Shown here: positions 37,967-41,448 of the stretch, in pieces
Layout of the letters: every line of letters starts with the position of its first letter
Numbering within the stretch: the stretch's first letter is position 1
Assembly (NCBI RefSeq): GCF_002256985.1
Contig: NZ_NCGO01000007.1
Coordinates: 80,475 to 144,474, forward strand
Origin: Novosphingobium sp. 28-62-57
GTDB lineage: Bacteria > Pseudomonadota > Alphaproteobacteria > Sphingomonadales > Sphingomonadaceae
Direction of reading: 5' to 3'
DNA: 64,000 nt
Made by a program: the position numbers and the translations under genes
Notes under the pieces: generated by a model
What the model saw: the letters and a program-made list of their open reading frames with translations, nothing else
What the model was told of the DNA's origin: nothing
Databases searched by the model: none

Positions 37967-38629
37967 TTACTCGCGCCCTGCACGTATAGCCGCTCCCCCG
38001 GCAAAGGGCGCAACGGCCAGGGCGACAAGGCTGCATGCAGCCAGCAGGGCCAGCCCGCCCTCGCCATCCGGCTGCAGCGATCCTGCGCCGAAAATCAGCA
38101 GCGGCACCGCCATCGGGATCGCCAGCAATCCGCCCAGCGCCGCGCCTGCGCGCATTCCGGCGGTCAGCGCGGCAATCGTCACGCCTATCGCGGCCAGCCC
38201 CGGCGTGCCCAGCAACAGGCCCAGTTCCACCATCCACAACTGCTGCGCATCCAGCGACAGCAACCCTGCCGAGAGCGGCGCGGCGAGCATCAGCGGCACA
38301 CCAAAGCTCAGCCAATGCGCCAGCACGCGCACCGCCAGCAGCGCCTCTTCTGAAATGCCGCGCAAGGCCCATTGGTCGAACAGGCCCGCCTCCACATCCG
38401 GCTCTACCAGACGGTCGAGCGGCAGGATCGCCGCAAGCAGCGCCGCCACCCAGATCACCCCCGCCCCGGTCCGCGCCAGCAACCGCGCATCCGGGCCGAC
38501 CGCGAAGGGAAACAGCATCGCCACGGCAAGGAAGAACAGCAGCGGCAGGACCGCCCCGCCCCGCCCTTGCGCGCCGCGCGTCAGCAGCGCGAGATCGCGG
38601 GTGAAGATCGGCCAGAGCTTGCGGATCAT
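37967..38629 (-). CDS. ccmB: Heme exporter permease CcmB
   Basis: LFPFAVGPD..LL, IWVAALLA, P..VPLLIFG; downstream of ccmA. Confidence 0.92.
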   Translation of the reverse strand: MIRKLWPIFTRDLALLTRGAQGRGGAVLPLLFFLAVAMLFPFAVGPDARLLARTGAGVIWVAALLAAILPLDRLVEPDVEAGLFDQWALRGISEEALLAVRVLAHWLSFGVPLMLAAPLSAGLLSLDAQQLWMVELGLLLGTPGLAAIGVTIAALTAGMRAGAALGGLLAIPMAVPLLIFGAGSLQPDGEGGLALLAACSLVALAVAPFAGGAAIRAGRE

Positions 38630-39201
38630 AATTGAAAATCCAGCAGCTTGATTTCATGCACAGCTTCAAGCGCCAGCGGCTGGTGCGAGGCGATCACCAC
38701 CGCGCCGCCTGCCCGGCAATGGGCAGCAATGGCAACCTGCGCCTTGCTCGACCAATAGGTGTCGAGGCCGTTCAACGGCTCGTCCAGCAGCCACAGCGGG
38801 GCACCGCTTGCCGCCACGCGGGCGAGCGCCGCGCGCTTGCGCTGGCCCGTAGACAAGTAGCGTACCGGCACGTCGAGAAGGTCGGCAAGGCCGAAGTCGG
38901 CTTGCTCCGGCTCGGCGCGGTCGATGCGCTGCCAGAAGGCCAGCGCCTGTGCCAAAGGTTGGTGCCCGTCGAGCGCCAGCCGCTCATCGGCCAGCGCGAT
39001 GCCGCCGGTGCGCTCGACCGTCCCGGCATAGGGCCGCAGCAAACCAGCGAGGATGCGGATCAGGCTCGATTTGCCGATGCCGTTGGGCCCGGCCAGATGC
39101 ACGATCCCGCCGGAACGCACGGACAGCGACAGGCCCCGGAACAAAATCCGGTCCCCGCGCCTGCAGGCAATATCCGTGGCGACGAGACCGCACTCTTGCA
39201 T
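38626..39201 (-). CDS. ccmA: Heme exporter ATPase CcmA
   Basis: [31 protein letters not shown]; ATG start at 39201. Confidence 0.92.
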
Positions 39202-39254
39202 GGGATGAGGCGATAGGGGAAACGGTGGCGACTGCCAAGCTTGCCAAAGGACCG

Positions 39255-39563
39255 ATGATGACCATAGCCCGCCTGACCCCGAAACCACTATCAAACGCCG
39301 AACGCGATGCGCTGCTGGCCGAACTGCCCGAATGGCAATTGCGCGAAGATGGGCTGGCGATAGTCCGCACCTTCCGCTTCGGCGATTTCTCCGAAGCGTG
39401 GGCCTTCATGAACCGCGTGGCGCTCTACGCCGAAAAGGCAGACCACCACCCGGAATGGTTCAACGTCTACAACCGCGTGGAAGTGACGCTGACGACGCAC
39501 GATGCCGATGGGCTGTCGGCAAGGGACGCGGCGATGGCGCGGGCGATGGAGGCATTCCTATAA
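39255..39563 (+). CDS. Pterin-4-alpha-carbinolamine dehydratase
   Basis: F.DF..AWAFM.RVA..AEK.DHHPEW.NVYNRV...LTTHD..GLS.RD. Confidence 0.93.
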
Positions 39564-39784
39564 TGACCCACTTCTCGCCCGGCGACATTTATGAGGATTG
39601 CGCAAATCATCCGTGCCTGTGCATCGAAGTAAGCGAAGCCGACGACGAAATCTGGGGCATCTCCTTGATCGACGGCAGTCATCCCCGCGCTTGTAGCTTA
39701 GCGCATTGCGGCATAACGAAGCTAACGCCAGCAGAGGCCTGGGATCGCAAGAAATCCATTCAGGGTTTCGAGGGCTTTGATTGA
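39563..39784 (+). CDS. 73-aa Cys/His-rich hypothetical protein
   Basis: [20 protein letters not shown]...GISLIDGSHPRACSLAHCG...; ATG overlaps the upstream stop (TAATG). Confidence 0.65.
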   Translation: MTHFSPGDIYEDCANHPCLCIEVSEADDEIWGISLIDGSHPRACSLAHCGITKLTPAEAWDRKKSIQGFEGFD

Positions 39785-39846
39785 AAGCTGTCGTTCGGGA
39801 GACGACGCTGTGGCAGACGCCAACGTGATTATGACAGGATTACGCC

Positions 39847-40281
39847 ATGAAATGCCAATTAGTCTTCCGCTATGATTTTAGTAGCGACGGTGATGACTTT
39901 GGTTGGCTTGCCGCGCAAATTGACACGCCACAATTCAAAGCGGTCAACGGCACATGGGTTCAATGGCAGGACATCGAAGAACTGACTGCGTCGTTGGGCC
40001 GCTTTCCAATAGAAGCTCTCGAACCTGTTGTAGGTAAATGGGGGTTTAGTGAAGATGGTCGAGACACAGAGGTCACCAAGATCGTCATTAAACCTCAAGG
40101 GATAGCGAGCGCACTAAGCGTTCACGTGTTGCTGGCGAACAACTACAAGCCCGCCAACCTTTGCAGCGTTCAGTTTGTGACAGATTATCCAGCGCTTGCG
40201 AAATTTTCTGGTGAACTCAGGCGGATGTTGCAGGATCGCGTAGGCAGCGCTGCGCTGGATGGCTGGGCAGACGACAGCTGA
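39847..40281 (+). CDS. AT-rich orphan hypothetical protein
   Basis: 144-aa ORF with atypical composition (42-48% GC in two hand-counted 60-nt lines vs 73% in a flanking line); no function recognised. Confidence 0.7.
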   Translation: MKCQLVFRYDFSSDGDDFGWLAAQIDTPQFKAVNGTWVQWQDIEELTASLGRFPIEALEPVVGKWGFSEDGRDTEVTKIVIKPQGIASALSVHVLLANNYKPANLCSVQFVTDYPALAKFSGELRRMLQDRVGSAALDGWADDS

Positions 40282-40331
40282 CCACCCACTTCCTGCTACC
40301 CAAGTTCTTCACACCACATCCCAAAACCGAA

Positions 40332-40419
40332 CGTCACCCCGGACTTGATCCGGGGTCCCGCTTTTCTTGGGCGGCACAAAAAGGGGACAGCGGGATCCCG
40401 GGTCAAGCCCGGGATGACG
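40332..40419. repeat. CGTC-type REP inverted doublet
   Basis: CGTCACCCCGGACTTGATCCGGGGTCCCGC ... GCGGGATCCCGGGTCAAGCCCGGGATGACG. Confidence 0.88.
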
Positions 40420-40457
40420 AATGGAGGGGTGGATTCTTGGCGTTGGGCAGGATGCCC

Positions 40458-41261
40458 CTACTTCCCCAGCGGCTTTTCCGACGACCGCATCTGCTTCCGC
40501 AGCGCCCCCGGCATCCAGCGCGAGGCGAAGGCCAGTTTGCGGGCGGTCTTGCCGACCACGGTGTGCAACCGGCTCCCGTGCACCGCTGCCCACGCAGCCT
40601 CGGCCACTTCGCTCACCGGCGTGAGTTCGAGGCCAGCGCCGAGCACGCGGGTGCGGATGTCTTCGTTGCTGGCGCGGTTGGGGGCGTGGTCGAGCAGCGG
40701 GGTTTCGATGAAGCTGGGCATCAGGTCTCGCACCGCGATCCCGTCCTCGGCCCATTCACCGTCGAGCGATTCGGTGATGGCGCGCACGCCGAACTTGGTG
40801 GCGGAATAGACCGAGGCTCCGGGTGAGCCGTAGATGCCCGCCGCGCTGGCGGTGTTGAGCAGGCAAGATCCCGGCGCGCTGGCCTTGAGCCAAGGGTGCG
40901 CCGCCTGTGCGCCGAAGATCACGCCCTTGAGGTTTATGTCGAGCGTGCGTTCGATTTCCTCAGCCGTGAGATCGACGATTGCGCCGCCGATGGGAACGCC
41001 AGCGTTATTGAACACCACATCGATCCGCCCGCCCGAAGCCTTGGCGCAATCGGCCAGCGCCTGATCCCAGGCCGCGCGGTCGCGCACGTCGAGTTTGTGG
41101 CAGGAGCTTTGCCCTGCAGTCAGCAGCGCGGCGGTTTGCGCCATGCCGGCCTCGTTCACATCGGCCAGCCCCACGAACCAGCCGCCTTGCGCAAAGCGCT
41201 GCGCCACCGCGCGGCCGATGCCTGATGCGCCGCCGGTGATGAAGATCGTCTTGCGCGGCAT
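40458..41261 (-). CDS. Short-chain dehydrogenase/reductase
   Basis: ITGGASGIG, FNNAG, S.......YSATKF. Confidence 0.92.
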   Translation of the reverse strand: MPRKTIFITGGASGIGRAVAQRFAQGGWFVGLADVNEAGMAQTAALLTAGQSSCHKLDVRDRAAWDQALADCAKASGGRIDVVFNNAGVPIGGAIVDLTAEEIERTLDINLKGVIFGAQAAHPWLKASAPGSCLLNTASAAGIYGSPGASVYSATKFGVRAITESLDGEWAEDGIAVRDLMPSFIETPLLDHAPNRASNEDIRTRVLGAGLELTPVSEVAEAAWAAVHGSRLHTVVGKTARKLAFASRWMPGALRKQMRSSEKPLGK

Positions 41262-41358
41262 GCTGCTCCCCCTGCTCACATTGTTGTCAGCAACAAATTA
41301 CAGGTTTTGGTCGACGTGCAAAGCCGTCAGTTGCGCTTCCCCCCAACCTCGCTGCTTT

Positions 41359-41448
41359 CGTCACCCTGAACTTGGTTCAGGGTCCATTTCTCGTCACCAG
41401 CGGCAGTTTGATCGGCACAATGGATGCTGAAACAAGTTCAGCATGACG
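41359..41448. repeat. CGTC-type REP inverted doublet
   Basis: CGTCACCCTGAACTTGGTTCAGGGTCCATT ... AATGGATGCTGAAACAAGTTCAGCATGACG. Confidence 0.88.

Follow-up and report, generated by a model that had tools for sequence, protein, structure and literature searches.

A small low-GC gene at the phhB locus of Novosphingobium as the probable payload of an exchangeable gene cassette

How does a small gene of low GC content come to lie in the gap between two convergent housekeeping genes, with its stop codon overlapping one arm of a short inverted repeat? The question arises from a stretch of 64,000 nucleotides of Novosphingobium sp. 28-62-57 (contig NZ_NCGO01000007.1, forward strand positions 80,475 to 144,474), here called the window, in which two open reading frames (ORFs), ORF1 and ORF2, follow the pterin-4a-carbinolamine dehydratase gene phhB. 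The original prediction saw in them a two-gene islet of orphans, a remnant of a gene-cassette system other than an integron. We find that ORF2 and its short leader are probably the payload of a small exchangeable gene cassette, one of a family confined to Novosphingobium and close Sphingomonadaceae. Comparison with relatives gives good support for cassette behaviour. ORF1, on the other hand, is neither an orphan nor a cassette payload. Below, G000 denotes the genome of the window, and other labels in G and L denote relatives' genomes and loci.

All parts of the unit are read on the forward strand. It opens with a left element (LE), whose core (39784..39821) consists of a head, AAAGCTGTCGT (39784-39794), a spacer, TCGGGAG (39795-39801), and a tail, ACGACGCTGTGGCAGACGCC (39802-39821). 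After a 25-nt leader comes ORF2 (39847..40281; 144 aa), which ends in a right element (RE, 40270..40297). The RE is made of an A motif, GACGACAGCT, which contains the TGA stop of ORF2 (40279-40281), and a B motif, CCACCCACTTCCTGCT. ORF2 is low in GC, as had been claimed, with ~50% across the gene and 51.6% in the reading frame itself versus 62.3% genome-wide.

The first clue to the LE was that a few of the genomic matches of the degenerate motif proposed originally shared a far longer similarity. Its layout is AAAGCTGCCGT, a 7-nt spacer TCnGGAn and then ACGACGCCATTGCnGAC, and 37 distinct copies yield the consensus GgCnGcttT-N17-aAAAGCTGCCgTTCnGGAnACGACsCCaTTGCgGaCnTT. The region upstream of the core, cagGGTTTcgagggctttgattg in the window (39757..39783), is moderately conserved among 37 aligned copies, with the family consensus GgCnGcttT-N17. 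G000 carries eight LE copies, found by a 31-nt search followed by nhmmer (E 9e-9 for the window copy), and ~45 further copies were found beyond it, all in Novosphingobium or close Sphingomonadaceae. Within the genus, a degenerate LE pattern detects 22 sites, spread over 13 of 151 genomes. The exact pattern, searched in 185,579 species with one genome each, detects 12 loci, all of them in Novosphingobium or unclassified Sphingomonadaceae, and a metagenome scan adds 23 more. Copies are also present on the 620-kb plasmid p1 of Novosphingobium sp. ES2-1.

The RE begins with ACGnCAGCT (the A motif), to which the LE head AGCTGnCGT is reverse-complementary, and continues with CCCCACCCAATTCC-like sequence; it overlaps the stop codon of the payload or adjoins it. 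Downstream of 11 of 29 LEs an RE core is present within 1.2 kb on the same strand, where ~2 are expected by chance; upstream, this holds for 4 of 32. By eye, the stop codon is inside the A motif, overlaps it or lies within ~15 nt of it in ~13 of the 24 payload 3' ends listed, and four unrelated genes end across the A motif in one and the same frame (gacgacagcTGAccaccc in the window, and aacgaccgcTAAccaccc, aacggcagcTAAccaccc and gacgtcagaTAAccaccc). A separate similarity links the two elements: 10 of 12 positions agree between the RE B motif CCACCCCATTGC and the LE tail CGACGCCATTGC (for example L108, 5548-5562), and by this match the LE reads C-spacer-D and the RE reads rc(C)+D', rc standing for reverse complement.

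Together, LE, a leader of ~25 nt, one small low-GC gene and RE form units of ~350-650 bp, which occupy the intergenic spaces of convergent housekeeping genes, either alone or two or three in tandem. The payloads average 54.6% GC versus 63.3% in the upstream flanks. The window unit is single and does not belong to an array; L071 holds three units, L037, L077, L079 and L083 hold two each, and arrays occur on the ES2-1 plasmid as well. The junction within an array runs from the stop codon and ACGGCAGCT through CCCAACCACTTCC, ~45 nt and GGCAGCTT-N17 to the next LE core, ~140 nt in total. The geometry at the 5' end is equally regular. In 13 of the 24 copies with a forward ORF the ATG lies 60-62 nt after the AAGCTG of the LE (62 nt for ORF2), that is, the start codon stands 30-32 nt after the TTGC of the LE, and the encoded proteins are mutually unrelated. 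The same spacing is seen in every further copy inspected (L091, L094, L100, L103, L123 and two on the ES2-1 plasmid), and the 25-30 nt leader between LE and ATG is not conserved. In three units the ORF is inverted between an intact LE and RE; that such inverted payloads still keep both elements argues against the LE being a promoter and nothing else. Among the arrays, L109 (G000:C9:76900-78300) contains two cassettes after an M16 peptidase gene, in the order diverged LE with a 69-aa ORF, LE tail only with an inverted Imm35 gene, and RE; this Imm35 gene may be frameshifted, as its 82-aa and 113-aa ORFs overlap.

What happens to these units over time is seen at the window locus itself. The convergent pair of phhB and an SDR oxidoreductase gene is kept across Novosphingobium, a synteny confirmed in the relatives by tblastn, and the gap between the two genes holds six different fillings, with the layout LE, gene, RE and a palindromic REP repeat in the clade of G000. 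The fillings are ORF2 in G000, unrelated sequence in G048, an 86-aa gene in G020, a 113-aa gene in G019, another sequence in the metagenome contig L076 and the gene of a 99-aa membrane protein in the Logan contig L123. In several more distant species the stop codons of phhB and the SDR gene are only a few nucleotides apart, which is the empty state. phhB is the conserved left flank of this hotspot and the SDR gene its conserved right flank.

The boundaries of exchange coincide with the two elements. Aligned by blastn to L010, the corresponding locus of the sister species G020, the window matches at 38301-39552 and 39763-39808 and then again at 40271-41448. Homology resumes at the first base of the right arm of the inverted repeat, in the RE A motif, and with G048, G020 and G019 alike it breaks off at 39808, inside the LE. 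Relative to G020, the differing segment (39809..40270, forward strand) thus comprises LE tail, the 25-nt leader and ORF2 minus its last three codons. Locus comparison had been proposed originally as a check for precise gain or loss of ORF2; replacement of ORF2 in relatives, with breakpoints inside LE and RE, is what we find, and precise gain or loss of a whole unit is not. Comparisons by eye divide the LE in the same way. The LE head of L010 agrees with that of the same-locus L023 at 18 of 20 positions versus 13 of 20 for the same-payload L022, and the LE tail of L010 agrees with L022 at 21 of 26 positions versus 14 of 26 for L023. Therefore the head goes with the locus and the tail with the payload.

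Other sites behave similarly. A second hotspot, between a 276-aa gene and rimO, holds three different payloads, and a third lies downstream of a sugar kinase gene. The 86-aa payload that occupies the phhB locus in G020 is found in G000 at C19:268.9k, behind another LE, and its synonymous divergence (dS) between the two genomes is 0.06 versus 0.30 for phhB in the same genome pair, which indicates recent transfer. More distant copies of this payload, in G146 and G001, have a degenerate LE at the same distance, and the G001 copy has RE-like sequence on both sides. A homologue of ORF2 with 63% identity, on an unrelated contig, likewise keeps a degenerate LE at +31.

What, then, do the cassettes carry? 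Matches to Pfam identify SMI1_KNR4/SUKH-1 (E 7e-12), SUFU (E 3e-19) and Imm35 (E 9e-9) among the payloads, and most payloads, ORF2 included, have no direct Pfam match. SMI1_KNR4/SUKH, SUFU, Imm35 and WapI are immunity families of polymorphic toxin systems (PMC3482391). ORF2 itself has no match in Pfam, NCBIfam or PADLOC. Its family comprises 92 clusters at 50% identity, and an AlphaFold (AF2) model built from the family alignment (pLDDT 96.5) predicts a beta4-alpha-beta4-alpha fold, for which Foldseek returns Whirly and PUR-alpha as the nearest solved folds (TM ~0.5). When the family was compared with the Pfam WapI immunity model (PF24716), 3 of 46 members matched weakly (best E 7.8e-4) and ORF2 did not match. 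We regard ORF2 as a candidate orphan immunity protein. Between ORF2 and its 63%-identical homologue, nonsynonymous and synonymous differences are 0.24 and 0.75 (pN and pS), and the payload genes are under purifying selection. No toxin gene was seen beside the units whose flanks were read or annotated.

Orphan immunity genes are thought to shield bacteria from competitors' toxins, and the cassettes may accordingly be a dispersed stock of such genes. Payloads would be exchanged at the LE and RE junctions, the likeliest agents being a recombinase whose gene lies elsewhere in the genome or short-homology recombination that follows DNA uptake, and the LE probably also supplies or positions expression signals. 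Put more specifically, and tentatively, the family may constitute a cassette system without an integron, in which a recombinase with its gene at another place, possibly a housekeeping enzyme, recognises the bipartite junction of RE and LE (~140 nt in arrays) and inserts, excises and swaps orphan immunity genes one at a time at many sites on chromosome and megaplasmid, the LE also setting the translation start at a fixed distance.

Several results weigh against this proposal. As the original prediction had noted, no integrase is linked to the cassettes: none of the 11 tyrosine-recombinase (PF00589) genes of G000 lies within 25 kb of any of its eight units, a tblastn search of these 11 recombinases against ~57 loci yields one integrase-like fragment at one locus only, and no integrase is present within 5-6 kb at the three ES2-1 plasmid loci examined. 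No whole unit was seen to be precisely gained or lost between close strains. For the unit at C19:268.9k, the orthologous empty site was sought in 12 relatives; only the payload matched, the flanks themselves being accessory. Recent movement rests on one payload, the copies being few and the elements old and diverged. RNAalifold finds no conserved hairpin in the family. Moreover, the fixed distance from LE to ATG would equally fit a purely regulatory role.

A classical recombination scheme finds no support either. The LE core has an 11-7-11 layout like that of a recombinase core site, and the RE supplies the perfect complement of the LE left arm; given these two features, we tried a model in which LE and RE are the attL and attR sites derived from a palindromic attB. 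The empty site that it predicts, AAGCTGCCGT-N7-ACGGCAGCTT with up to two mismatches, has 2 matches in 301 genomes versus ~35 for the control, a further point against the proposal. So is the outcome at payload 3' ends, where neither the unit's own LE spacer (p 0.33) nor an LE-core-like half-site (p 0.8) is enriched. One promising empty-site match, in G058, was rejected as it is another LE variant with a payload. The palindromic-attB model is unsupported, and the negatives are weak since the sites are old and degenerate. In one unit, L024 (G000:C35:140259-140603), the exact LE spacer TCCGCAA recurs in the last codons of the payload, 5 nt ahead of the RE A motif; no other unit has a spacer common to its left and right junctions, and the case is isolated.

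Could LE and RE be nothing other than expression signals? The LE would then be a promoter, operator or 5' leader and the RE a 3' end or terminator of a lineage-specific stress or immunity regulon, and gene differences would arise by ordinary horizontal transfer and homologous recombination, with the signals serving merely as patches of homology. The spacing of 30-32 nt between LE and ATG, fixed over non-homologous genes, speaks for such a role, as do the lack of a linked recombinase and the 63%-identical ORF2 homologue, whose LE has diverged along with its gene. The LE also acts as a linear sequence motif, because RNAalifold finds no conserved structure (0 pairs in 32 copies, and no family-wide pairing of the upstream region with the LE head), even though single copies pair well individually. 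Yet the LE fits no promoter consensus with which it was compared: a sigma-70 scan finds nothing in it, and identities as a sigma-54 site, an EcfG site or a LexA box were rejected since, by our own reading, the spacings do not fit. Inverted payloads retain both elements, and four unrelated genes have their stop embedded in the RE in one fixed frame. The breakpoints, moreover, lie within the LE, between its head and its tail, and at the A motif of the RE, and the exact identity stretches there, at most ~12 nt, are very short for RecA-dependent exchange. On balance we consider an exclusively regulatory role rather unlikely. One LE copy departs from the family in its pairing: at L108, 4976-5040 (NZ_CP063446.1, ~519.2 kb, on the ES2-1 plasmid), CGGCGGCT and AGCCGCCG replace the consensus CGGCAGCT and AGCTGCCG, so that upstream arm and head are both altered and still pair, the one compensatory pair of the family. 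Another copy, at L006 (G000:C2:75821-75885), is a solo LE without a payload, directly 3' of a ParE-like toxin gene; an RE and a REP lie 4.5 kb away in the same orientation, with a TonB receptor/PepSY/DUF2946 operon between them on the other strand.

A different mobile agent comes into view 3' of the unit, where a REP-type palindromic repeat (40338..40413, not assigned to a strand), on which terminator-like hairpins are called on both strands, represents a separate mobile hairpin family that is often found 3' of an RE. Conceivably the units are passengers of such REP/MITE-type hairpins: a Y1 (HUH) transposase of the RAYT or IS200/IS605 type would move them in single-stranded form, and LE and RE would be the subterminal sequences that it recognises. 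In many units the REP stands at a fixed distance 3' of the RE, the genome encodes one Y1_Tnp protein, LE and RE both hold short inverted repeats of the GGCAG...CTGCC type, and the ES2-1 plasmid LE described above has compensatory changes in both arms. This explanation is nonetheless improbable. A strict REP pattern has 26 matches in the genome and only two of them carry an RE head, L022 and L024 have an RE without a REP, and no hairpin is conserved over the family. A link of the units to Y1/RAYT was rejected as the sole Y1 gene is flanked by a different, unrelated repeat. That gene, at L025 (G000:C38:28250-29300), is a single RAYT-like Y1_Tnp gene; ahead of it stand several copies of a 37-nt repeat, GGGGAATTACGGTGACACTTTACTAAATCCCCAAACT, together with a duplicate of its own 5' coding end, the whole forming a separate repeat system. 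Compared with Rfam, the REP palindrome gives only a sub-threshold match, on both strands, to the miRNA hairpin family mir-605, apparently a false positive that the long hairpin produces.

A question remains about the repeats that first drew attention to the locus. They are present where they had been reported, as are the two ORFs: the palindrome CGAGGGCTTT-GATTG-AAAGCTGTCG (39769-39793), whose first arm lies in the region upstream of the LE core, is imperfect, with 8 of 10 positions complementary, and AGCTGTCGT (39786-39794) and ACGACAGCT (40271-40279) form a perfect 9-bp inverted repeat. Taken alone, the inverted repeat is at chance level. ACGACAGCT occurs 29 times in the 4.1-Mb genome versus 30 expected, and 77% of shuffles of the 738-nt region give at least one 9-bp inverted repeat, so the original caution about a chance match was apt for the repeat as such. 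Its meaning comes from comparison, which places both arms in elements conserved over ~50 copies: the 9-bp inverted repeat is the local instance of the family-wide complementarity between LE head and RE, the two arms of the window carrying T/A where the consensus pair is C/G. The palindrome at the ORF1 stop, in turn, has no counterpart in a structure of the family.

The proposed scan with the short motif was similarly divided in its outcome. RACGRCAGCTK has 40 matches in the genome versus 20 expected, but these lie mostly in ordinary genes; RACGRCAGCT is part of both boundary elements. The short motif was rejected as a cassette marker on these grounds and on the chance-level count of ACGACAGCT, and only the long LE is diagnostic for the family. 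Hence the idea of a non-integron cassette system holds as far as a family with conserved sites at the stops of small low-GC genes exists, and does not hold for the short motif or for ORF1. A 9-bp direct repeat, ACCCACTTC (39566 and 40284), was considered as a target duplication and rejected: its downstream copy belongs to the RE consensus, it occurs 34 times versus 30 expected, and several repeats of 9-10 bp are expected per 1.5 kb. That inverted repeat and palindrome are altogether accidental, and the two ORFs ordinary strain-specific genes with no special architecture, agrees with the chance-level counts but is very improbable, as the arms lie in elements of ~50 copies with fixed geometry to start and stop codons and the locus comparisons break exactly at them.

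A literature search found no description of this cassette family. Of the systems described so far, the rAID-1 (recombinase-associated acquired interbacterial defence) clusters found in Bacteroidales (Ross et al., bioRxiv 10.1101/471110) and the polyimmunity loci (Zhang et al. 2012, PMC3482391) come closest, followed by integrons. Like the Novosphingobium units, rAID-1 clusters and polyimmunity loci contain orphan immunity-type genes (SUKH, SuFu, Imm) with GC below that of the host and without cognate toxins, they have conserved repetitive intergenic sequences 'reminiscent of integrons', and their content varies between close relatives. They differ in that a rAID-1 cluster is headed at its 5' end by a XerD-like recombinase gene, whereas none is adjacent to the units here, and in that rAID-1 genes form long co-directional arrays of up to 31, whereas the units are single or in twos and threes, scattered over many loci. 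Repeat sequence and host are different as well, the host here being an alphaproteobacterium.

With integron cassettes the units share a single compact, mostly promoterless-looking ORF and, directly at its stop codon, a site of recombination type. In the junction element the two ends are reverse complements, like R'' and R', and both kinds of cassette form tandem arrays, with some cassettes inverted and variable content at a fixed site. We regard this as behavioural resemblance and not as membership. The attC cores RYYYAAC/GTTRRRY are absent from LE and RE, in agreement with the original prediction, and a conserved, folded attC-like hairpin was not found by RNAalifold in the 32 LE copies. No IntI/attI platform stands beside the units, as judged by the lack of PF00589 genes within 25 kb of the eight units of G000. 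Furthermore, conservation is concentrated 5' of the ORF, with a constant spacing to the ATG, and many independent chromosomal sites are used here in contrast to one attI platform.

Modules in which the recombinase is encoded elsewhere are also known. The pdif (Xer) modules of Acinetobacter plasmids and other XerC/D-dependent IMEX are small gene modules with short recombinase-type sites, and the Novosphingobium units resemble them in small size, short boundary sites and the 11-7-11 LE core with its partly palindromic arms. However, by eye the LE has no resemblance to dif or pdif, its spacer is 7 nt versus 6, the two ends of a unit differ, and the palindromic empty site was not found in the 301 genomes. 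The units also lack the conserved subterminal hairpins and the matching Y1 repeats of an IS200/IS605 PATE or a REP/RAYT system. [quoted passage not shown] The likeness lies in module replacement at a fixed locus through conserved flanks, leaving orphan immunity genes; those arrays, however, are inside T6SS clusters beside effectors and have long homologous flanks, whereas the units here have no adjacent toxin or secretion genes and flanks of 20-65 nt.

To our knowledge, only in integrons and, in part, in the rAID clusters that gut Bacteroidales carry is it understood how orphan immunity genes are collected. If the cassettes are what they seem, they would provide a second way of capturing and shuffling single genes, in free-living alphaproteobacteria, by means of dispersed cassettes with sharply defined boundaries and no linked recombinase. 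Those boundaries, of 38 and ~25 nt, together with a few hotspots make the mechanism directly testable, and the fixed distance of 30-32 nt from LE to start is a separate puzzle that bears on cassette expression.

The remaining parts of the locus belong to its standing framework. phhB (39258..39563, forward strand; Pfam Pterin_4a, E 6.6e-35) ends with a TAA stop at 39561-39563, which the ATG of ORF1 (39563..39784, forward strand; 73 aa, Cys/His-rich) overlaps as TAATG; in L123 the junction reads TGATG, and from these overlaps ORF1 is predicted to be translationally coupled to phhB. At the other side, a locus spacer ending in CCCAAAACC (40298..40337, forward strand) is common to G020, G019 and L123 (blastn, with alignments by eye), and the SDR oxidoreductase gene (40458..41279, reverse strand; Pfam adh_short, E 3.5e-44) is convergent with phhB.

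The view of ORF1 and ORF2 as a pair of orphans in one islet has to be given up, given 61 clusters related to ORF1 and 92 related to ORF2. ORF1 lies outside the exchanged segment, and its 3' end, with the last codons and the TGA, extends into the stretch directly upstream of the LE core. Its homologues are 47-92% identical and come from Sphingomonas, Rhodospirillales, Lysobacter and others. At the phhB locus it is present in G048 and L123 and absent in G020, G019 and L076. Compared with the G048 orthologue, ORF1 has a ratio of nonsynonymous to synonymous divergence (dN/dS) of 0.11 and a dS of 0.39, and phhB has a dS of 0.31; ORF1 is thus under purifying selection and has diverged in step with phhB. 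In a Rhodospirillales relative the homologue has different neighbours and is not next to phhB. The ORF1 family, for which there is no Pfam model, is widespread over several orders, and ORF1, with its Cys/His pattern C..HPC.C...H..C...HC, may be a small metal-binding protein.

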